A stretch of DNA of 64,000 nt from the NCBI GenBank assembly GCA_000091205.1, contig AP006499.2, one strand, 5' to 3'. How positions within the stretch are numbered: position 1 is the first letter of the stretch; every line of letters begins with the position of its first letter. The notes beneath the pieces were generated by a model. That model saw only the letters and a list, made by a program, of their open reading frames with translations, made no database searches and had not been told where the DNA came from. Origin of the DNA: Cyanidioschyzon merolae (Eukaryota). Below are positions 2,770 through 39,775 of the stretch, in pieces. The position numbers were made by a program, and so were the translations under genes.

Positions 2770-5700
2770 TCGCACAGGGCGATGCGAATGACGTTATCAG
2801 TTTTGACCTATATTCTCTATTCCATCGCTGAAAGCTATAAGAGATGTGTTCAGCAGAGGCGAGTCTACCTTCGACCTGGTCTCATTGAAAAGGCTGCGCT
2901 AGACGCTGTCACGTCGAATTGCTGGACACCTGCATCGTGTAGACATCGCCCAGCAAACTCATTCCCAGCGCATATAAACATATTTATGTATACGGCGTTC
3001 CGGCTTTGCTGACCTGTTCATCGTTCCACACCAGTGTCGTGCTCCAGCCAAGAATCCCATGCCGCCTGTGATGCCCGCTGATTGCTTCATCGCATTTCTT
3101 CACCCTGTTCGCACAACGCTGACGCCGAGTCGCCAAAGGACACTTCACTTGGACGCTTGCCTGGGCACGTAGCCGCTGGTCGTTCCGGAAGTCTGAGCCA
3201 TCTCCGGACGCTGATCCAAGTTTTGCAGTCTCAATGCGGAAAGTGTCTGCACGCGTGTTTGCTGGTGGCATCAAACCACAGAAAGCCTCGCGCCTGCGAT
3301 GGCCTCAGGATCTACGGTTGGTCAGCTCTTCGGAAAGCTTTTTGTGTGTCCGTCTTTAGTTCACGCTTGTCTTCGCTGCCTGGTTCACCGAGGAACGTTC
3401 TCTTGTTGCGTATGCGTTGAACTGGAGTCTTGGATGGGCTTGGTACAGCATGGATTCCTGCACGCGTTCAATGCTCTAGTCGGATGAGCAGGTGCGCAGC
3501 TTTTTCGCGCTACAGCTCGTATGGCGCCTTGGGCCTCCACCATCAAACGGAGCAAATCGTTGGTCATTGCCTTGTCAAACTCATTGAACTATTCCGCGAA
3601 TGCATGCTTCGTGCCGCCTCACAAGGGGAAGCGCTGCCGACCCCAGCGGGGTCTCTGGTATCCCTGCCAAGGAGCGTCCGCGTGAGCCGTTTGGACGCTC
3701 AGGTACGCAGTGCATGAAGCGTCCAAAGCGTCCTCCTCCACGTCAGCTGAGTACGGTACTCGGAGTGGCGAGGCGCCCGTCGCGACACCGTCGTTGCGCT
3801 CGTGCGTTTACCTCCTGGCGTCTATGATGTCTGACGCTCGTCAACATCGAGCAGCAGAAGACTTGAACAGCTTCATCTGCATGCATATTAGGTATAGGGC
3901 TCCGTCCTGTTGATATACATGCACGATGACGGCAGTGATGTGCTTCAAGCTGGATTCACGCTCACAACAAAGTCTGTTTCTTCTCCTACCTTGAATGGTT
4001 GGGAATTCGTCTCGTTACGCAGCTTGGATCCGGGTTCCACAAAGTACATGCAGATTGGTATGGCGTCGGTCTGCATCGCTCCGGTGAACTTTTTTTCAGC
4101 TGCTCCCTGTCATGGAGACAACGTAGGATGAGCTCGCCCGATGCTCTTCGCGAATCGGTTCGAGGGTTTCACAGCTGGTCGCCCCAGACCAGGTTCTTCT
4201 GCAATGCGTAACGTACGAGGCCGAGTTGCATCCATGTGACCGCCATATTCTACATCCGTTTTTTGACGTCGGGATTCAGACGCACTGGGTGGACGGTCAG
4301 ACTACAGCTCGCCATTTCGATGTATCCGTCAATAGTTCCTGGGGTGCCTGTTTGTCGCCATGTCCGTCGCGAGGACGCCGACGGCGTGAAGCGTGCCTCA
4401 CCGCTCCCTCCTGCGCATGAGCCGAGAAGCAACGCAGCAGTTCAGATCTGGAAAAGGTAGCAGAGAGCGTCTTGTCGAAGAACATCGCTAGTACGGATGC
4501 AAACGACGTGTCTGTTGATCCGAGAGTGTAGAAACCGCGATTTTCCGCAGAGAACACGCTTCGGCCTGGATTAAATCGGAGACAATGGACAGCCGTGGAG
4601 AGCTGCTTACGCCTCGACGGATGTCCACTGATGGAAAGCGCCGTTACCTAGCACCAGGACATGAACCTGTGCAGGACAAGCCATAGAGTGCTTCGACGAT
4701 GCATGGGGTGCTGAACAATCCTGTCCGTCTGGTGCATTGTGGGTGGACATTTTATTCAATTGCCACCAGGGTTGACGTGGTCGTCATTCGCGAATGACGC
4801 TTTTTTACATACATCGGTTTGCCCGTCTTTGAGCCCAATGTAAAAACGCCCACCATTTCTCCTGAATCAAATCTCATCGAGGGAGGCGATCACCCGTCGG
4901 GCCGGTTATACGTATTCGCGTTTCACTAGGAAATCGGTAGCGTGTTGTGAAACGCGCGATGGTCACTTTTAGAAGCGTGCTCGCTCTTCTTTGTCCATCC
5001 GTATCTCTCGAACGCCGTTCGTAGCACGGGTACGGAATCTTCACACCCTGCGGCTCCCTTGATCATGTTTCGTTGAGAACATATCGGTGAAATGGAATGC
5101 TTGGGAGACAGTTGTGTGAACAGAGTTTGATATGCTTTGTTCTGGGTGCATCTGGTTCAGGATAAGGACGAGGTGGCGTCCTGACCTGTGCATTTGCTGA
5201 CCGTACAGTAACTGACGCGCACGTGCAATGCCGTATTCAGCGCGTCACCTGTGACGGTATCGAGTCTCCTCATGACCTTTTTCTAACCTTCGGAGCACAT
5301 TCCATTTGCTGAATACCTACGAGAACAGAAACATATCAAAAACAGGTGCGCCTACTCAGGTACTCCGTAATGCATTGCCCTGAACTAACCCAAGCATGTC
5401 CAATGCAGAACATGCGACAGCGACAAGTACCATGGCCTCTGCTGCGAGCAAGCAGGTGCGCGAGATTCGATCCAGTGTTTACCGCCCGTCTAGGCGAGGT
5501 CCCGGTTGCAGTGGTACGCTTGTCGACTCTGTGGATCGCTCTGCGAAGCGAGGAGTGTGGCGAGCCACCAAGCGTCTCGCGCTTGCTGGTCGTCCAGGTT
5601 GCGCACGGTGCTGCTCACGACCGGTCGACCCGCGCTGAGGTCGGTTGGTACGCGCGACGACGACGACGACGACGACGTGCGGTGGCGAAGCATTGCCTTG

Positions 5701-18368: not shown

Positions 18369-19865
18369 CTATTCAACAGACAGGTTCACATCGAAAGAGC
18401 CCTCGAATGCGCAGATATGGGGCAGCGCTTTTCGGACAAGTTCCAGTTCTCGACGTAGTTGCTCAAGCGTCGGGCGTTCGACGAGCTTCACCGTCTTCAC
18501 GAGTGCGTCCTGTAGCCAGTATCTGCGCACGGCGTGTGCGGCGTCGCGCTCGCTCACTGAATCGCCAAGAACGAGGAGGTTCAGATTGGCCGGGTAATTT
18601 GGATGTCTCTCAAGCTCTGCCCTGAATGCCTGCGTTTTCCAGTCCGATGGCGAGTGCGGAAAATCTGACTCGTAAATGCTTCGGGCAGAAATGATACGAA
18701 TATCGCTCGAGTCGAGATGTTGCAAAACTCGTGGCATGAAGCGGGCCGCTGAAAGTTGCACCCAACCAGTTTCCGCATTGGTAATGACACATACGCGGCC
18801 ATATTGTTGGGCGTCATCCAAAATACCAATGACGAGATCTTCTAGTGCATCCAGATTTGCGACAAGTTCCTGCGGTAACGATTCCGTGTCATCTACGCGG
18901 AAACCTAAAGTTGAGAGCCACGTCGACGAGAGCAGCGTATCGTCCCAGTCGAAAAGCATGATCGTGCAATCAGGAGCACAGATTCGCCTCGCCTGCTCCC
19001 GCTGGGTCGCGAACCCAGGGCTGTTTCGGTCGTGGTGCTCAATTTTCAAACCATTTTCCGGGACGTCCAGAAGCGACCATTCCGCGCACCTCCGTGAAAA
19101 GGAATCGGAAGGTTCGGGCGCGGTCACACGCTGGCGCTGCCATGATTCGCCGCACGTCAAATCTACACCATGGACGACAGGTGCACTGCTACTAGCACCG
19201 TCTACGTCGCCAGAGGTAAACTCCGCCGCGACTCCAGAGGACAGCATCCAGCTTCGATCATTTTTCCTAGTTTCTGTACAAACATGTACTGCAAATCGGT
19301 TGTTGTCGAAGCTCTCATACGAATCTGGTTCACATAACATTCTCAGCGAGTCCCTGGGCAGCATCTCGTCCCCGTCTGAGACAGTGCGGGAGAACGACTC
19401 TGCCGCAACGGTTGATGCGGTATCAGGTTCTGATTCGGACTCCGAATCACTCAGGTACCCAGGTAGGGCGTCGTCCTCCGGGACGAAGCGCCCTGCGAGC
19501 GAAAAGCGCACGAAAGGGGTATTTTCCTTTTCAGAGTCGCCCAAACCCTCAGATTCCGAAGCAAAGAGACTCTGCTCGTCACGCCAGGACTTGGCCGTGG
19601 AGGATGACGAGTTCGCGTGATCCTCGGCGGCGCTGATCGATAGCGAGTCTTCCGGTACCTCGGTTTCCACGGACATACTCGAGGTGTCGTCGGGTGTCAA
19701 CGAAGGACAGAAGTTCACTCGAACTGTTAGCGTCTCTTGATCCGAGGAGCTGCTCCGATCCAAGACAGAAAGGCGTCGACCTCGTTGGCGTGCGCCGCAA
19801 CCGTCTCGAAGAGTTCGAAGTCTGTTACGCTGTGAAGCTATTGAACCAGCAACTGCTCCCATCAA
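18369..19865 (-). CDS. HAD-superfamily hydrolase-like protein with a long acidic/Ser-rich N-terminal region
   Basis: HAD motif I 'MLFDWDDTLL', motif II 'VCVITNAETGW', motif IV-like 'LVLGDSVSERD'. The N-terminal ~250 aa are low-complexity (S/D/E-rich). Confidence 0.55.
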   Translation of the reverse strand: MMGAVAGSIASQRNRLRTLRDGCGARQRGRRLSVLDRSSSSDQETLTVRVNFCPSLTPDDTSSMSVETEVPEDSLSISAAEDHANSSSSTAKSWRDEQSLFASESEGLGDSEKENTPFVRFSLAGRFVPEDDALPGYLSDSESESEPDTASTVAAESFSRTVSDGDEMLPRDSLRMLCEPDSYESFDNNRFAVHVCTETRKNDRSWMLSSGVAAEFTSGDVDGASSSAPVVHGVDLTCGESWQRQRVTAPEPSDSFSRRCAEWSLLDVPENGLKIEHHDRNSPGFATQREQARRICAPDCTIMLFDWDDTLLSSTWLSTLGFRVDDTESLPQELVANLDALEDLVIGILDDAQQYGRVCVITNAETGWVQLSAARFMPRVLQHLDSSDIRIISARSIYESDFPHSPSDWKTQAFRAELERHPNYPANLNLLVLGDSVSERDAAHAVRRYWLQDALVKTVKLVERPTLEQLRRELELVRKALPHICAFEGSFDVNLSVE

Positions 19866-20235
19866 ACCTGACAGAGCCCACCCTCTATACGTACAACAGA
19901 TAAATCTAGTCCGTTCACGGACGAGAAGACCGTTCCGGCTACGCTTTCCGTTTCGCTGCAGACGTCTCCGTGCGCGCTTTTCAGAGTTGTCACAATCGCC
20001 AGCTCACTGCGTCGATAAATACCACGAACACAAACCACAGTGTGACCAGGAGCCAGTCAGAAACCAGACAAGCGCTGTGGAGTCCAAGAAAAACGAAGTT
20101 CCCACAACGCTCGTCGAGGCCTCACCTAGAACACCCCTGAAGACAAACGTCTTTGAAAAGGAGAACGCTGTCGCCGGCGGTGTACAGCAGTGGCGGCAAA
20201 CGGGTCCTAGACAAATCGTCCCCAACTGATGGGCA

Positions 20236-20338
20236 GACACCTCGCCGTCTTTCTCGACCGGTCACCCACTACTGGTTTCAACTTTTTCTCATATAGTTCC
20301 ACTTTGGAAGATTGTCCAATTAAGTTTTCTCTTGTCAG
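20236..20338 (-). other. Conserved 3' noncoding tail of the Fanzor element (candidate omegaRNA scaffold / right end)
   Basis: The ~105 nt immediately 3' of the Fanzor stop codon align ungapped at roughly 65% identity with the sequence 3' of the second fragment (39650-39775), e.g. 'caaagtggaactatatgag' vs 'caaggtcgaactctacgcg' and 'gttgaaacc' vs 'gtcgaaacc'. Beyond that point the two flanks are unrelated. Confidence 0.35.
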
Positions 20339-20726
20339 TTATGGAAGTCTTCTTTCCATCACCGCACATCTGCTTATATTGATAGCGGCATTAAAGTCAC
20401 GGTTCACGAATTCCATACGTTTCTTCCCGTTGACTGTACTTACTAATGCAAGGGGTCCACGAACTTTCGACATCCTTTCCATTTGCTCTTCCGTCAGCGG
20501 TCCATACTTTTTTATACCTTCAGGGCTCCGGTGGCACTTTTCCATCTCCACTCTCTGCAGTGTACAACCCAGCTCATGGTGTGTATACGATGTTCGAAAC
20601 TCATCTACAGGTATTGTAACAAAACGCCGTGCACACTCCATGTACGTTCTTGCCGTTGGAGCTGGTGTACACCCTTTTTGTATCCTCCGGCGCCCTGCTC
20701 CGTACGCTACCACGAGCCCTGACTTT
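20339..20726 (-). CDS. Fanzor-like nuclease, C-terminal segment (TnpB 'VDPxYTSQ'-like segment, degenerate Zn-ribbon, RuvC-III)
   Basis: 'TIPVDEFRTSYTHHELGCTLQRVEMEKCHRSPEG...VNGKKRMEFVNRDFNAAINISRCAVMERRLP*'. 'RDFNAAINI' is a near-canonical TnpB/Fanzor RuvC-III motif. The frame opens after a TGA at about 20727-20729 and overlaps the end of the previous segment, so a 1-nt frameshift or a tiny intron separates them. Confidence 0.65.
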
Positions 20727-21395
20727 CATTCTCCTTCAAGGCACTCATTAAAAAATTCGCGAACGCGCGCCGCTTCCCACAATACAGATTCATTCGCAGA
20801 CGAGCGCACCGGGGATTTGTATACTCTTCCCACAGCGCATCCCAATGAGCAACACGAACTTCCATGAATTTCCGAAAAGCTTCCAAGTCCGCTCCGCGGC
20901 TCGTCACCTCACTCAAAGCTTCCAGGTGATCCTTCATTCCTGCATTCCATGCCTCAATTTTCTTCCTTGCATTCATGATTCCCGATTCTCGATAGTATCT
21001 TGCTCTCGAGAGCCTCAAAAGACGCATGTCTTTCCGACGTAAGTTGCCGTCAGTACCATCTTCCGCACGCTTGGGTGCTGCGATGGTTGCGATATTTGTG
21101 TTTCCGGGGTCCGCGCCAACGACAAAGTCGTTATTCTGCACTTTCTGCGTCGCAGGATACGCCTCCTTCTCATCTTCATGCTTCGTTACGGACAATATTG
21201 AAGACGGCACTGGACGATCTGCCTTCAAGCGCCGATAGTGTACACACGTGGCTACTCCATCGGTTTCGATCATTCCAGTGAATACCTTTTGTTTGCTGAC
21301 TTTGAGAAGTTTGAAATTGAAGATGTTCTTCCAGTGCGTCTCCCGCTTATCAGCGGAGAACTCCTCCCTGCTGACACTGAACTCCGGACTGATCT
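20707..21395 (-). CDS. Fanzor-like nuclease, WED/RuvC-I segment
   Basis: The frame is open from about 21395. It contains beta-rich '[40 protein letters not shown]' followed by '[20 protein letters not shown]', matching the G-I-D-x-G RuvC-I motif of TnpB/Cas12/Fanzor. It ends at a TAG at 20707-20709 and is immediately followed by the next segment in a different frame. Confidence 0.6.
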
Positions 21396-21485
21396 CCTAC
21401 ATGATGCCGTAAAGGATTCTGGAGTCGATAGTCACAAAATGTGACCTGATGTTGCACATTGGAACGCCGTTGAAGCGCTTCCCCA

Positions 21486-22244
21486 TTAGGAAAGCCTTCC
21501 GTCTCTCCCACGCTTCATTTTTTCCTCACCCAGTTTCATCTCTGCCTCGCGTCCCAGTTCTCGGTCCAGGAACACAAAATATCGCAGAATGAGGCGATAG
21601 GATCTTCCCTCATCTTTTTTCAACGCTGATATCTTTTCTGCTGAATTCGCCAACCCCAGTGCCGCACGATGCTCTTTCATAGCCGCACGGATTACAGAAT
21701 CCTCATTCGTGCTCTCATTTGACTCCTTCTTCTCGACAAATTCGACCTCATCTTCACGCTTGCGATCTTTCGTGATGCCATTGATAATCGCCCATATTCC
21801 TTTACGAGACAGGTCCGGGTAGAGTGCAACTACGGCGCGTATCATGAAACGTTCGAGGTTCACGATCAGATGGTTCTTCAGGTTCGTGAGGTACTTCATC
21901 GCCCCATAGTCGTACATATCCCGGTCACCCTTGTATCGAGTACCATTAAAGCTGTAAAAGGAGTGTTTTTCGTGGAGGACGTGCACCCGCTCATTTTCCC
22001 TCCGCGCTTCCTCTGTACCAAGCATCAGGTATCGAATAAAGGTCTTGTCGAAGAACTTGTCCGGAATCTTGACCGTTTCCATTTGCGTCACGTCGCGATA
22101 CGTCTCCCTCGCCAAATGCATCAGTCCTGACGACGCCTTCACAATATTCCTGAAGTAAGAGTCGACACGTTTTTCGACAGCGTCTCGCAACTTTTCCCTG
22201 CAGGGATCCTTGATATGTCCAAGAAGAAAGGCTTTCACCACCAT
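21486..22244 (-). CDS. Fanzor-like nuclease, N-terminal (REC-like) segment
   Basis: 252-aa ORF directly upstream of, and in the same orientation as, the RuvC-containing segments. Its frame stays open upstream to about 22337 with a K/R-rich stretch (EKEEKKNRKGEALRRRPQERR). No catalytic motifs are expected in this part. Confidence 0.45.
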   Translation of the reverse strand: MVVKAFLLGHIKDPCREKLRDAVEKRVDSYFRNIVKASSGLMHLARETYRDVTQMETVKIPDKFFDKTFIRYLMLGTEEARRENERVHVLHEKHSFYSFNGTRYKGDRDMYDYGAMKYLTNLKNHLIVNLERFMIRAVVALYPDLSRKGIWAIINGITKDRKREDEVEFVEKKESNESTNEDSVIRAAMKEHRAALGLANSAEKISALKKDEGRSYRLILRYFVFLDRELGREAEMKLGEEKMKRGRDGRLS

Positions 22245-22453
22245 CTCGTCGTACTGTCGTCTTTCTTGCGGCCTTCGACGTAGAGCCTCCCCCTTTCGGT
22301 TCTTTTTCTCTTCCTTTTCTTCTGGACTCGGTAATGTTTATTGTTTTTTTTTCTGGCAGCCAGCCACACTGAGCCTCCAGGATCGTCGACTTGCTTTTTC
22401 ATAGCCTTCATTTTTTAGTTTTTTTGAAAAAGAACGCTCTTTGAACGCTTCTG

Positions 22454-22777
22454 TCATATACTGCGAAAAAACACTTTACTAGACTTGTTTGAGGTTTGAG
22501 GCACAAATGAAATGAAAAACTGCTTTTTTGTGAAACTCCAACGGAAATCCAACTTGTTCCGGTAGTACACGCTTCTGATCAGAATCGCTTTTCTCTTCAA
22601 CGGCGACATGCGCGTCTTGTCAGTTGACTGCCCGATCTCCCTGATGCGCTCACCGAGCGGGATTCTTTTTTCATTGACAAGACGTTTACTTAGGCCAGCG
22701 TTCTCCGACTGTGCGCTTTTTCTTTTCTTTCTTTTTTTATTTGGTTTTCTGCGCGCGTTGAAGTATCCATCAAACAC
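22454..22777 (-). CDS. Possible 5' exon or ORF of the Fanzor element with a basic NLS-like tract
   Basis: 'FNARRKPNKKRKKRKSAQSENAGLSKR' is a classic mono/bipartite NLS-like stretch. It lies about 120 nt upstream of the REC-like segment on the same strand, in an AT-rich patch. Confidence 0.3.
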   Translation of the reverse strand: MFDGYFNARRKPNKKRKKRKSAQSENAGLSKRLVNEKRIPLGERIREIGQSTDKTRMSPLKRKAILIRSVYYRNKLDFRWSFTKKQFFISFVPQTSNKSSKVFFRSI

Positions 22778-23269
22778 CCTACTCCCAAGTCACATTACCT
22801 AAACTTCTTCTCGGATTTTCTGGTCGTTTCATGCGTTCTATCACACACCTAATGCCTGCCCTAGTCATCCGCAATAGCGTCTTTACCTTCGGTACAGTTG
22901 CATCACGGAGACAGAACGGCGTTGCCGTACCACAGAGGGCGTCCGTTCGAACTGGGGTACGGATCATACGTGGATCGCGGCGAACGGGGTTGTGACCGGG
23001 TTCTTTGTGCGTCGCTCGAATGTGCGTTTCCTCCAATGCCCTGTAGCTGCTGGTTCAGAAGCATTCGGTTCTGGTCTTTGAATTCAGCTCCGACTTTGGA
23101 TTACATGAGAGAGCGTCAATTTTCGTGTAGGTCATACCTATTTTCAGCTTTGGTGCGGACGCGTGCACGAACGTCACGCTTTCCAACGACTACATGGAGC
23201 CCCGAGCCGTTGGGAACGATCCCAACACGACGAGCTCCGCCGCTCGAGAATACATCGGAAACGATGGTG

Positions 23270-23493
23270 CACTGCATCCACATGGAACACGAGCCGCAGT
23301 CGAAGCGTGTCCCTGCTCTGTGCCCAAGAGTGCACTGATCTAGGGCAACTCCAATATTCAATGTACCGTTTTCAAATGCACTGCATCCACATGGAACACG
23401 AGCCGCAGTCGAAGCGTGTCCCTGCTCTGTGCCCAAGAGTGCACTGATCTAGGGCAACTCCAATATTCAATGTACCGTTTTCAAATGCACTGC
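23270..23493. repeat. Direct duplication, ~110 bp x2
   Basis: 'cactgcatccacatggaacacgagccgcagtcgaagcgtgtccctgctctgtgcccaagagtgcactgatctagggcaactccaatattcaatgtaccgttttcaaatg' occurs twice in tandem (starts 23270 and 23379). It generates duplicated small ORFs in the track. Confidence 0.9.
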
Positions 23494-23764
23494 AAGCGCC
23501 AGAGTACTGCAGCGCAGGTGCGACGATGGCGAACCGGACACCAAATGAAACCTTGGACGCACTTGCGCTCCAGCGGCACACACCCGTTCTATGCGAGCTG
23601 TCTACTGCGCTATTGGGAGATACAGTGCTGTTCGGGGCTCAGCAAAGTCAAGCAATCTTTTACGACCAGGAGCCGAACTGTTAGTGGCGTCTGGGCTCTA
23701 GGGGGCGAACAGTTGAACCGGCTCGAGCCGCTCGTACCAGCGAGGTCAAAGACTTGGGGGTGTC

Positions 23765-34192: not shown

Positions 34193-36549
34193 AGACGGTG
34201 TCTGCGAGAGCACTGTAGAAGCTCACACTGGCACGTTTTGGCCGGAGCTCTCCAGACGATAACAGAGAGCATTGCTCCGAGGGAAGCACCTATGTGCGTC
34301 TCGATATGCGGCGTCCATCCAAGGCCGCAGTCTTCAGATTCTCAAGCGCTCCTGAGTTGCCTTACGAGGAAGCGAAATACTGGCACTTCTATCGTTGGTG
34401 TTTGCGAAGACCAGCGGCGGCACGAAACTTCCAAATGATTGTGACGCGATACAGAAGGCGAAGCTCGGTAATCCCTCGATCTATGAAGACGAAGTGTGCT
34501 GCGTTAGCATGGAGCGCATGGTGTTCCCAGAGTCCGATAAGACAACTTCCTGGATTTTTTTCTGATCTGAATGACACTGCGTCTCAGGGTAGTAGCTGGT
34601 GTCGTGCTTTCGATGTCATCCATTGCGTCTTGTACCTAAAGCGCGCTGTGAAAGCGCTAACACACAATTGATGCTTCTGGCGGTAACGTGCCTGGTGGAA
34701 TTGCTGTGAAGGCTTCCCCTGGAAAACATATCCGCGGGGAAAATCTTCCGAGTGGTGAGATGCAGGACTCCATTTGGCATCACGTAGCTTCTTACTCGAA
34801 AAAGCCGCATCGAGTTTCACGGGACTCGACGCAGCTCAATAAGCGACTCTACATTTGAGGAGCGGACGCAAGACTTCCAGCTGTCTACATTTCCATGGGA
34901 CTTTTCGATCAAACCTTTGTGCGTCGATGCAGCCAATGCACGGGACAGAAGACGTCATTCAGCCTGATGAAAAGGTCAGCGTGTTGCACATACGGGTGCC
35001 AGCATACTTCGATGCGTGGCTGCACCACCTCTTCCACAGAAACGTCTAGATCGCTGGCGCCAACGAGCGTTAGACACAGCTCACAAACCAAAACAATATG
35101 CGGGTCAATCTTGGGCGCTTCACGAAGTGCACCTCATGGGCGCCGTATTTTCTATTTACTGCCCCGAACAAGTGGGGATTGATGGAACGCGTTCCTGAAC
35201 CTGGTGATGCAAGGAAATGGCGAGTTGATGGTAGCCGAAGACGACAACATGGTGGCGAGTTCGAAAGCGATACCCCAACGAGATCGGGAGTCGCCTTGGA
35301 TCGTCGATGCTGACCGTGCATCGCTCGGCCTTGGAGCTGAGAAGCTCTCATTCAAAAGATGGTGAGATCGTGATGCTTCGCTTCCGGGAATCTTGCGTCA
35401 ATGCGTTCTGTGAAACAGAAACCGCCGCCCCAGAGCAAAAGCAGACGCGCTCTTCGAATCCGCGCGTCATCACGCTCCTCGAGCATCCATTCGATCCAGT
35501 TCTCATGTGTCAGATCAAGTCCGACGATATCGCCGTAGACACTTCTGTGCTCCACGGGGTAGTGCTGCTCGGCTTCCTCAGTGAGCTTCAGTTGATCTCT
35601 GCGAGCGAGTACGATGCAGTCAACCAACGTGAGGAGTAGTATCGGTTGTTGCCGTTCAGGGTTTCACGTTTACACGCGGGAAATCGAAAGCAGTCCACGG
35701 GTACGATGCGGCCCGCTGGCATATCCATCGAGATGCACTTTGTGAAACCTAGGTCCGAGTCAAGCGGCAAGACTCATTTGCATCTATGCGACATAAAAGA
35801 ATTGGAAGACCTTGTAGCGGGGCGTGGATCTCGGATTCAAATGCGTTATGGCCTTCGCCATTCCGCCAAATCAGGAGAACGGAGCCAAAGACCTGGACTG
35901 AAACTAGACGATGATGCTGCACAGCTTTTTTTCGTCGACAATGATCGAGACTTGGATATGCTGGACACCAGGACGCCCACCTCGATGCGCTGAACGCCGA
36001 ATCGAGTCCAGGGTGATGCCCAAGAAGCTGCATTCGGAGCGTGCATGAGCATCCCAAATGGATCACGCGGACGGCATCTTTATTTTCTTGGAAGGAATAC
36101 ATGGGAGTGCGCTGGCGTCGCCAACGTTTTCAATTGCACGGAGGAAACAAGCGTACGTTCGCCAACTTGTCCCATGAACTGGAAAAGGGACTAGCAAACA
36201 TGCCGCATCGTCTTGGGTTCGCCGCTGACGCTGGACGTATTGTGTTGCGCACGGGCTGCATACCTGCATCTTCGTTAGAGCATCCATCAAGTCCAGAAAT
36301 CGATTCTGTTGGATTTTCGTGAATGCGTTCAGGACGAGGTACACGCATCACAAACGCAGGTACACGCGGACACACTCAGAGAAGTAGAGCATGAAACAGA
36401 GCTGAATGCACGAGATGGTGTCCGGTACGCTGCCCGAACGTCGGCTGGCGAGGCAATCGAGGCTGTGCAGTTCGCCACGACATGAGTCTAACAGCGACAG
36501 CGCGCACAAGAAGTTCGCATGCACCGACCCTTGAACACCTCGATGAAGA

Positions 36550-36740
36550 CCCGTCAATGTGCACTGCCTCGGGAGCGTCCGACCGCTGGATGTCGAGCGA
36601 ACTTGCCAATGAATCGTTTCGTACGCAGCATGGGCGTTAATCAAGTCCCGTCAATGTGCACTGCCTCGGGAGCGCCCGGCCGCTGGATGTCGAGCGAACT
36701 TGCCAATGAATCGTTTCGTACGCAGTATGGGCGTTATGCT
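36550..36740. repeat. Direct duplication, ~97 bp x2
   Basis: 'cccgtcaatgtgcactgcctcgggagcg(t/c)ccg(a/g)ccgctggatgtcgagcgaacttgccaatgaatcgtttcgtacgcag(c/t)atgggcgtta' occurs twice in tandem (starts 36550 and 36647). Confidence 0.9.
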
Positions 36741-37105
36741 GAAAAACCTGAGACGTCCAACAAAGAAAAATCACCGGCCAGGAACGCGGACATTGGATTC
36801 CCCCGCCTGGAGACCAAGGCACTGGTACGGTACAATCAGCGATCCAGTAAAGCTATGGTGCCGTATACCTAGCGTGGAAACGATTTTACTGCGCAGCTGG
36901 TATACGATAATGGTGTCCCATTATGCGAAGCTGCCGCTTCCGAGTTACGAAAGCCAGTAGCAGCTACGACGCTGGGAAATGGATCCATTCTCTGGAAGCG
37001 TGCTGTCGCCCGCGTTCTCGATTCGGATTTGATGACAGAACATCGTTCGCAGCGGAGCGCGCTTTGCTTGTCAACGCTGGCGCGTGACTTTTACGACGAC
37101 CAAGT

Positions 37106-38077: not shown

Positions 38078-39389
38078 TGCACGCCTCGGAGTAAGGCTAG
38101 GACGCGGTTATCTGAACTTGTCACCGTATTCGATAAACGCTCACGCAGAGTGCCGCCCTCGTGAGTAACGAAGAAAGCCGCCAAGGCAGAAGCGAGCGCC
38201 ACAGGCTACGCGTGGGTCTACAGCGTCCCCGAATGAGCGGGGTGGTGTGTGGGCCGCAGCGACGTGCGACGTCGCGCCGTCCAGCCGAACAAAGTCTACA
38301 ATCATTGTATATAATGGGAAGGAAAGGACATGAGCACCGAAAGCGCAGAGCTGTGCGCGATCGCTGTGACGCGAGCGCGCCGATCTGTCGACAGTCGTTC
38401 AGCTCGGGTCTGTTTCAGCCCTGCTGCGTGATATCGAATGCTTTTTCGCAGTGTATAGCCGGAGATCGAAATCACGTTGCAGTGAACCACATACAATGTA
38501 GGCATCTCGCGTATAGGACATATTCTTTACTGAAGATCGCAACGAGGATTGCATTCCTCGTTCGGGTCAGTTATATCGCTGTACTCAGGTGACTGAGGAA
38601 CAATGAAAGACCGCCATCAAAGCGCTCCGCGCCGAAAACCGGTGTTGTCAAAGACTGCCTGCGGCCAGTTGTAGAGAACGACACGTTTATCTTCTTGCGG
38701 AAAGCAGAAGCGACGACAGTCGTCACCGTGGGCGTCTCTGTTGCTCAACAGCCTATTCGTGTGGTCCAGAATACACTGGGTACAGTCCCAATGTAAGTTC
38801 AGGTTCATTCACAGCCATTTTCCACCGAAATAGCGACGACTACGTTGCTGGAACGTCGCGGCCTGTATGACGCACAGGGATTTCGGTTTGTTTTTTTAGT
38901 CGATGAGACTTTCCTCGGATGAGACTGTCAGAGCGTATGTAGAAATTCACGGAGAGCGAGCCTGTAGTATATAGCATGGAACTCGGAGAGAACGAAGACA
39001 TTATCTGTTCCAGCTGCAGTGGATTTATATGGCGGCCTCAGCTTCGCTGATAGGAAAGACTCATCGAACAGCACCAACCACATCGTCGAATCATTGAAGA
39101 CTTTTTCCAGACGTCTGGCGATGTCCTTCTATAGGATGACATTGTATTTCACCATCCGGCTTGCGTTCGAGCTTTCGCCGATTCTACCTGGATAGAGCTG
39201 CTTTTTGAATCCTCCGTAATCTCTATGGACTGACCCCATCGAAGAAGTGTTTTGAATCGGAAAACGTAAAGATCACTCCACTGGGCGATTCGCTGGAGTG
39301 TTCAGGACACGGCGACACACCGGGCTACATTACGTCTTTGTTGCGCAAGTGCTTGCCCCTCCGGAAAAGTCCTCATCCCGGGGCATACA

Positions 39390-39775
39390 GAAGTGTGTTT
39401 CTTTTGATGAACTAAGAAATCTGAGGGCTGAGCTGAGGCGTGCGCGTCAGAGGGTCGAGATGGAAAAGTGCCAGCGCAGCTCTGAGGACATAGAAAAATA
39501 CGGAGCGCTGACGAGGGACCAAATTGAAAACAGGGCGCAAGTTTGAGAGCTATTCGCATGAGTGTATACAACCAACGGCGGCAAGAAACGCAAAAAGTTC
39601 GTGATCCGAGACTTTAACGCTGCTATGAATACCAGGAGATGTGCGGTACTAAAAACGAGACCCGCGGAAATGACGCGAGCCAACTCCGTGGGAGAACCTC
39701 GCAAGGTCGAACTCTACGCGGAGAAGTCGAAACCTGTCGCAGGGGGCCAGTCCAAAAACGCCGGGATGCACCTGC
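39390..39775 (+). pseudogene. Degraded partial copy of the Fanzor-like element (C-terminal ~100 codons plus the conserved 3' tail)
   Basis: Translation 'VSFDELRN...QRVEMEKCQRSSEDIEKYGALTRDQIENRAQV*ELFA*VYTTNGGKKRKKFVIRDFNAAMNTRRCAV' aligns with the first copy ('VDEFRTS...QRVEMEKCHRSPEGIKKYGPLTEEQMERMSKV...VNGKKRMEFVNRDFNAAINISRCAV'). It has two in-frame stop codons and has lost the H/C residues of the Zn-ribbon. The 3' tail homology ends at about 39775. Confidence 0.65.

Follow-up and report, generated by a model that had tools for sequence, protein, structure and literature searches.

A Fanzor1-type gene split over three reading frames in Cyanidioschyzon merolae is very probably an inactivated element copy

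Introduction

CMe-1A, a Fanzor1 family of Cyanidioschyzon merolae, was described with ~150 copies that are ~80% identical to a consensus of ~3 kb (Bao & Jurka 2013, Mobile DNA 4:12; PMC3627910). According to the same paper, these elements lack terminal inverted repeats (TIRs), their target-site duplications were undetermined, the 5' 635 bp are common with the repeat TE-N2_CMe, and the open reading frame (ORF) is intact in some copies only. The C. merolae genome has a GC content of 55% and introns in 0.5% of its genes (PMC1955436). Fanzor genes of other eukaryotes have acquired introns (PMC10530073). This work deals with a Fanzor/TnpB-like gene on the minus strand of a 64,000-nucleotide stretch of C. 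merolae DNA (assembly GCA_000091205.1, contig AP006499.2), the whole of which is called the window. In the original prediction, the nuclease was read from several frames separated by short gaps, and both introns and partial decay were considered. The locus, ~22950/22663..20143 (-), is very probably an old and inactivated member of a Fanzor1 family with many copies, most probably CMe-1A; its breaks are lesions and no splicing takes place.

Results

Reading Frames of the Locus and Their Continuity in Relatives

Translation of the minus strand in three frames over 22800..20300 gave one frame with the first codon base at positions of mod 3 = 2, open over 22337..21489 up to TAA 21488-21486, another of mod 3 = 0, open over 21396..20710 up to TAG 20709-20707, and a third of mod 3 = 1, open over 20725..20342 up to TAA 20341-20339. 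The splitting of the nuclease over at least three frames was confirmed in this way, together with its predicted coordinates. The view taken of the middle gap, from 21486 to ~21395, was right only in part. The splice-like strings that had been noticed there are present (CTGG/GTGAGG at 21533-21524 and CATCATGTAG/GAG at 21406-21394), but the interval is coding, since the mod 3 = 0 frame is open already from 21525 and its sole break is TAG 21399-21397. Instead of a gap, there are 42 coding codons and one stop. In addition, the true ATG at 22402 falls within the first of the predicted gaps.

The translations of the window pieces were concatenated and used as a protein query, and 71 proteins matched, far beyond chance. 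The best match, P0001 (752 aa, E = 0, 67% identity, 100% query coverage), is encoded by a single uninterrupted ORF of 2259 nt (locus L001, 6001-8259), and the window element is 83% identical to that locus at the nucleotide level over 22616..20177. P0001, P0002, P0058 and P0069-71 are continuous through all three break points; among them, the more distant full-length relatives P0058, P0069, P0070 and P0071 show 31-41% identity to the window translation. In the comparison with other copies that had been proposed, homologues align continuously through 21529-21397 and 20727-20707.

A metagenome scan gave 71 related loci, so that the copies used for comparison are metagenome contigs; their differing flanks indicate a multi-copy element. 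A majority consensus was built from 31 full-length copies. It has an open frame from the ATG (window equivalent 22402) to the stop, from MKKQVDDPGGPGSPAARKKQKTVPSPEEKEEKKNRKGEALRRRRQERRLYDEMVVKTF... to ...NRDFNAAINIRRCAVLEKRPP, and is interrupted only in a tandem-repeat region, whose length varies. The ancestral gene, as reconstructed from these copies, was one continuous intron-less ORF. Since both the relatives and the consensus are continuous across all three breaks, the proposed introns were not supported.

Lesions of the Window Copy

Relative to the consensus, the window copy carries five lesions, three frameshifting indels and two nonsense substitutions (Table 1), which bears out the suspicion of a partly decayed copy. 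From the indel series +2, -1, -1, the frames are expected to follow each other as mod 3 = 1, 2, 0, 1, exactly as seen, and the five lesions fully account for this order. A 1-nt indel at 20710-20727 had been suspected and does exist, nearly all other copies having an extra A at 20719; the insertion of two bases at 22352-22351 and the TAA at 22340-22338 had been missed.

Sister copies were inspected at each of these places. In 13/24 copies, the ATG and the main ORF share one frame. At the A-run near 21521, 29/53 copies stay in one frame as ...MKLSEETNEEWERRKAFLMGKRFN and several others have different indels, which makes this run a hot spot for indels in the family. At the TAG of lesion 4, the first base is A in nearly all of 48 other copies and T in none (the exceptions being a G in L066 and L034 and a local indel in L041). 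At lesion 5, a base is inserted at 20718-20721 in all aligned copies but one, nearly always an A at 20719. Lesions 4 and 5 are effectively private to the window copy.

The window TAA at 20341-20339 may be a sixth lesion. Many copies extend in frame beyond it to a conserved TAG ~40 codons downstream, and P0007 and distant homologues have longer tails than the window copy. This assignment is uncertain because the codon periodicity of the tail is weak.

Decay and Selection in the Family

Individual copies are 85-91% identical to the consensus, with 89% for the window copy (~11% divergence), and 78-85% identical to each other. Nearly all sister copies are broken, at differing places. The longest ORF reaches >=93% of the element in just 1/42 near-full-length copies, a count whose literal use is limited by the discrepancy between L003 and L001: these copies are 99% identical at the protein level and L003 is frameshifted, because of either differences between strains or errors of assembly. 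As a rule, the copies of this family are decayed. At the P0001 locus (L001, 5922-6001), whose copy alone has an intact main ORF, the family ATG lies out of frame with the main ORF, at a distance of 74 nt (74 mod 3 = 2). Possibly no sampled copy is wholly intact from the ancestral start codon.

Substitutions of the window copy relative to the consensus are distributed 45/48/91 over the codon positions; 71 of the codon changes are synonymous and 95 non-synonymous. Such a pattern agrees with a copy that diverged in part under selection and later decayed neutrally. In the RuvC part, substitutions by codon position are 187/648/292 and 260/710/291, a strong third-position excess, with the strongest periodicity (260/710/291) at 20342..20719. 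Third-position substitutions in this part are 2-3.5x those of the other positions, a clear mark of long purifying selection on the family. An exhaustive hidden Markov model (HMM) search returned 4205 cluster representatives at E <= 1e-3, which indicates a large family.

Protein Identity and Domains

The assignment as a Fanzor-type nuclease was upheld by structure comparison and by the catalytic motifs. A Foldseek search against the PDB with an AlphaFold model of P0001 gave seven significant matches (E <= 1e-3), all of them Fanzor1 proteins (SpuFz, GtFz, PpFz), at E = 4e-9 to 2e-5 and probability 1.00, with nothing else below E = 1. Alignment A1 shows no variation in the D-E-D motifs of RuvC (GADPG, DEFRTS and NRDFNAAINI), which are kept in the window copy. 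Between RuvC-II and RuvC-III, H663 and H664 are conserved, with no clear CxxC pairs.

For the ORF pieces and the intact relatives, no Pfam or NCBIfam model matched above threshold, and these were not used for classification; Cas12f1-like_TNB of Pfam, a weak match to the segment 20342..20719, stayed below it (E = 0.0055, 17.3 bits vs a cut-off of 26.3). In a sequence-profile search of the PDB with seven relatives, the best match was GtFz1 of Guillardia theta, marginal at E = 0.025. With a second, word-indexed protein search, fragments of this family came up again, but none of the distant relatives had a name.

Just upstream of the RuvC-I Asp, the window has a single in-frame tandem-repeat unit of 75 nt (25 aa) at 21111..21185 (-). 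Family members have from 1 unit, as in the window, to ~5, as seen from repeated blastn matches within loci (such as L001 7226-7449) and from the proteins P0001 and P0009. The 25-aa repeat is predicted to be disordered in the AlphaFold model.

The N-terminus differs from the one originally proposed. An ORF with 'KPNKKRKKRKS' exists at 22454..22777, as described, and had been taken as a part of the protein with a nuclear localization signal (NLS). This did not hold, since most of it (22655-22425) shows no third-position excess (413/416/363), it is the most divergent part, it starts in a 5' module that many copies lack, and a stop lies 4 codons ahead of the ATG in the consensus. The basic, NLS-like stretch of the protein proper, EEKEEKKNRKGEALRRRPQERR, lies at ~22320-22255. 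The ORF upstream of the ATG ('MSPLKRK...') was also considered as a first exon and ruled out by the lack of periodicity, the highest divergence and the consensus stop before the ATG.

Three more Fanzor-like remnants were found in the window, at 34703-36744 (+), 3165-4091 (-) and 39373-39696 (+). They are 24-49% identical in amino acids to family members, more diverged and split over frames; the one at 34703-36744 is near full protein length.

Element Boundaries and Non-Coding Parts

By blastn, the homology shared by most copies runs from ~22663 to ~20172-20143, and in a subset it starts from 22950. The additional 5' module (22950..22661) is contiguous with the Fanzor core in L014, L016/17, L023, L031, L053 and L056, and is separate or inverted in L001, L026, L031 and L071. 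It holds the upstream half of the K-rich ORF, the K-rich stretch included. The module fits the shared 5' part TE-N2_CMe of PMC3627910, matched by its description, the 635-bp extent aside.

Several observations concern the flanks of the copies. The 5' module recurs inverted 1.6-2.4 kb beyond the 3' end of several Fanzor copies (L023 8760-8919, L071 8582-8873, L026 4303-4592), and at least 10 other copies have a different common upstream flank, TCATCGATCGGTGAGGCGTCTCGCGCGGTGCACGCATC. Both findings suggest that there are sub-families differing in their 5' ends, that other repeats are preferred as insertion sites, or that the element is part of a larger composite. Within the window, the element ends were not met again in inverted form. 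Directly before the core at its 5' side (window 22660-22666), most copies have the triplet ATC (GAATC, GCATC, AAATC), those with unrelated flanks included, which could be a target or target-adjacent motif (TAM)-like motif.

On the other side, ~200 nt past the window stop are conserved among copies, with a sharp end near 20143. In this 3' region, CAGUAGUGG and CCACUGCUG can pair as a long-range stem, and a hairpin lies at the terminus; the consensus of 130 nt folds at -52 kcal/mol (z ~ -2), a moderate stability. RNAalifold gave no consensus structure for the 3' 286 nt of 51 decayed copies, and a search of 19800-23600 against Rfam gave no match. Judged by analogy to the Fanzor1 and TnpB systems characterised so far, the region is a candidate for the omega-RNA scaffold and the right end of the element.

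The GC content of the window is 55%. The adjoining lipoyl synthase gene consists of one long ORF, whose nearest named relative is from Cyanidiococcus yangmingshanensis (78% identity). Exact look-ups of this lipoyl synthase and of the 252-aa ORF gave no record, and no annotated protein of C. merolae was among the matches. Between the element and this gene lies a perfect direct repeat with a period of 109 nt (118 nt at 100% identity), at 23268-23494.

Table 1. Features of the Fanzor1-type element copy in the window, in 5' to 3' order of the minus strand; frames are given as the position of the first codon base mod 3.
Feature	Position	Strand	Basis or remark
5' module, ~290 bp, A-rich	22664..22950	-	blastn vs 73 loci
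Non-coding 5' leader of the core	22403..22663	-	5'-end alignment; no codon periodicity (413/416/363); 16.6% divergence
Fanzor/TnpB-like gene	~22402..20339	-	Inside repeat element ~22950/22663..20143
Ancestral start ATG 22402-22400 and first codons MKKQVDDPGG..., frame 1	22353..22402	-	Consensus ORF opens MKKQVDDPGGPGSPAARKKQKTVPSPEEKEEK
Lesion 1: +2 nt (AA) in A-run (22357-22349), frame 1 to 2	22351..22352	-	Window-vs-consensus indel list; frame arithmetic agrees
Lesion 2: nonsense TAA, consensus AAA (K)	22338..22340	-	Repaired translation ...AARKKQ-stop-TLPSPEEKEE vs consensus ...KKQKTVPSPEEKEE
Frame 2 segment: basic NLS-like N-terminus EEKEEKKNRKGEALRRRPQERR and helical REC-like domain	21522..22337	-	tblastn with P0001 residues 1-271, 73% identity; third-position substitution excess
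Lesion 3: -1 nt (scored at 21521) in run GAGGAAAAAATG, frame 2 to 0	21518..21523	-	Extra base in most copies
Frame 0 segment: WED strands, RuvC-I, helical insertion	20720..21521	-	tblastn with P0001 residues 273-616
Lesion 4: nonsense TAG, family AAG (K) in ILYGIMKEISPEF	21397..21399	-	Copy alignment
RuvC-I GADPGNT, with the catalytic Asp	21097..21117	-	D484, P485 invariant in A1
-6 nt, in frame	20748	-	Window vs consensus
Lesion 5: -1 nt, consensus CAG-A-GG-CTC, frame 0 to 1	20719..20720	-	Sister-copy alignment
Frame 1 segment: RuvC-II, degenerate TNB/zinc-finger-like region, RuvC-III	20342..20719	-	Translation, alignment A1
RuvC-II PVDEFRTS	20611-20588	-	E656 invariant in A1
-3 nt, in frame	20431	-	Window vs consensus
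RuvC-III NRDFNAAINI	20404-20375	-	D725, N727, A728, I730, N731 invariant in A1
Stop TAA, probably premature	20339..20341	-	Alignment A3: consensus ...CCAGAGTnGACA... runs on to GTCTAGGGCG
Conserved 3' region to the right end of the element	20143..20338	-	Homology among copies stops at ~20172-20143

Discussion

Alternative Explanations

If the gene were intact and carried short spliceosomal introns, splicing would join the frames into a functional mRNA. Introns have been acquired by Fanzor genes elsewhere (PMC10530073), and at the locus there are GT..AG-like strings (21529 and 21397) and, at ~22465, the pyrimidine-rich ...TTTTTTCGCAG. Nevertheless, this is highly improbable given the continuous ORFs of relatives and consensus across each break. 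The interval 21529-21397 encodes conserved WED residues, with P292, I296, T302 and G310 invariant in A1 (relatives of 32-79% identity), and the removal of 21529..21397 (133 nt) leaves the frame unrestored, exon 1 ending one base into a codon and 21396 starting a codon. No intron would fit into the switch at 20725-20710, for which one missing A is the explanation, each in-frame stop differs from a Lys codon by a single base, and C. merolae has introns in only 0.5% of its genes (PMC1955436). Long single-exon ORFs flank the element. The breaks might instead be sequencing or assembly errors, such as homopolymer miscalls, in a gene that is intact in the organism, and 2/3 of the frameshifts do lie in A-runs (22357-22349 and 21523-21518), a typical error context. 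Errors of this kind are very unlikely to account for five independent lesions, including two stop substitutions and a non-homopolymer deletion at 20719, for the additional in-frame deletions of 6 nt and 3 nt, or for ~11% divergence with 95 non-synonymous codon changes, in a family where the sister copies are nearly all broken at other places.

Programmed ribosomal frameshifting at the A-runs together with read-through of the stops could also give a full-length protein. The A-rich run GGAAAAAATG lies at the 21521 break, where several copies have indels, but no X XXY YYZ heptamer is present in the incoming frame, as reasoned from the sequence, most copies (29/53) keep a single frame at the run, and the third frameshift site, CAGGGCTCG, is non-slippery. 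Read-through would be needed at two separate stops as well, and no conserved downstream structure was found with RNAalifold, so that recoding has next to no probability. Just as improbable is that the locus is not a Fanzor at all and belongs to another TnpB/IS605-like element or an unrelated repeat. The sub-threshold Pfam/NCBIfam match and the marginal GtFz1 profile match would allow for it; against it stand the seven significant Foldseek matches, exclusively to Fanzor1, the invariant D...E...D motifs, the eukaryotic nuclear genome context and the published C. merolae Fanzor1 family with these properties (PMC3627910).

Inactivation of a Fanzor1 copy is, therefore, the preferred explanation, and three points weigh against it. 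The error rate of the comparison metagenome contigs is unknown and part of their decay could be assembly error, which leaves the window's own lesions unaffected. The AlphaFold model of P0001 is modest (pLDDT 58, pTM 0.40), and its TM-scores to Fanzor1 structures are low (0.22-0.33). Finally, the copies are ~89% identical to the consensus built from metagenomes, unlike the ~80% given for CMe-1A.

Proposed History and Implications

The ancestral element would have had a single intron-less ORF of ~700 aa, with an NLS-like basic N-terminus, REC, WED and a split RuvC with D-E-D, followed by ~200 nt of conserved 3' sequence, presumably the omega-RNA scaffold. After its insertion, by whatever mechanism the element may have moved, the window copy would have drifted to ~11% divergence from the consensus. 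It would have suffered three frameshifting indels (+2 at 22352-22351, -1 at 21521 and -1 at 20719; two of them in A-runs) and two nonsense substitutions (22340-22338 and 21399-21397). As its frames stand, the window copy is unable to encode the nuclease. Dead copies might still yield omega-RNA-like transcripts or a REC-only protein of 252 aa (ORF 21486-22244), acting in trans with the few intact Fanzor1 proteins of this extremophile alga, which is very unlikely.

Genome annotators would do best to mask the locus or to call it a pseudogene of Fanzor1 type (CMe-1A-like) rather than a gene of several exons, and to keep the upstream K-rich ORF separate. When split frames are met in a Fanzor locus, sister copies should be compared before introns are invoked. 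The family appears to have been long under protein-level selection before individual copies decayed, as Bao & Jurka already remarked (PMC3627910).

Comparison with Known Systems

The window copy most probably belongs to CMe-1A or a very close relative, as matched by the published description and not by the Repbase consensus. Both share a red-algal host of the Cyanidiales with 55% GC, an element length of ~2.8 kb (22950..20143) vs ~3 kb and the presence of many copies. No TIRs were seen here either, the 5' region is common with a separately dispersed repeat, and most copies are defective, with few long ORFs.

Compared with the solved Fanzor1 structures SpuFz1 (8GKH, 9CEU-9CEZ), GtFz1 (9CER) and PpFz1 (9CF0/1), the domain order is the same (REC, WED, split RuvC and a putative TNB-like region), as are the D-E-D of RuvC, the basic N-terminal extension and the conserved non-coding 3' end where Fanzor omega-RNAs lie. 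In contrast to them, the family has only 11-14% identity to these proteins, a 25-aa tandem repeat before RuvC-I, and His-His with scattered Cys where a clear zinc finger of the CxxC...CxxC type would be expected. The copy in the window is non-functional, its omega-RNA putative.

In bacterial IS200/IS605 and IS607 elements, the guide RNA of TnpB comes from the 3' end of its gene, directly against the right end of the element. The RuvC fold and a hairpin near the right end are likenesses to these systems. The eukaryotic host, the much longer N-terminal and REC parts and the scores below threshold with the Pfam OrfB/TnpB models are differences from them, and no TnpA was found beside the window copy. 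With intron-containing Fanzor genes, such as CrFNuc of Chlamydomonas reinhardtii (PMC10530073), the family has in common that both are algal nuclear eukaryotic Fanzor1. Unlike CrFNuc, the ancestral ORF of the family is intron-less, the host genome is almost free of introns, and the interruptions of the gene are mutations.

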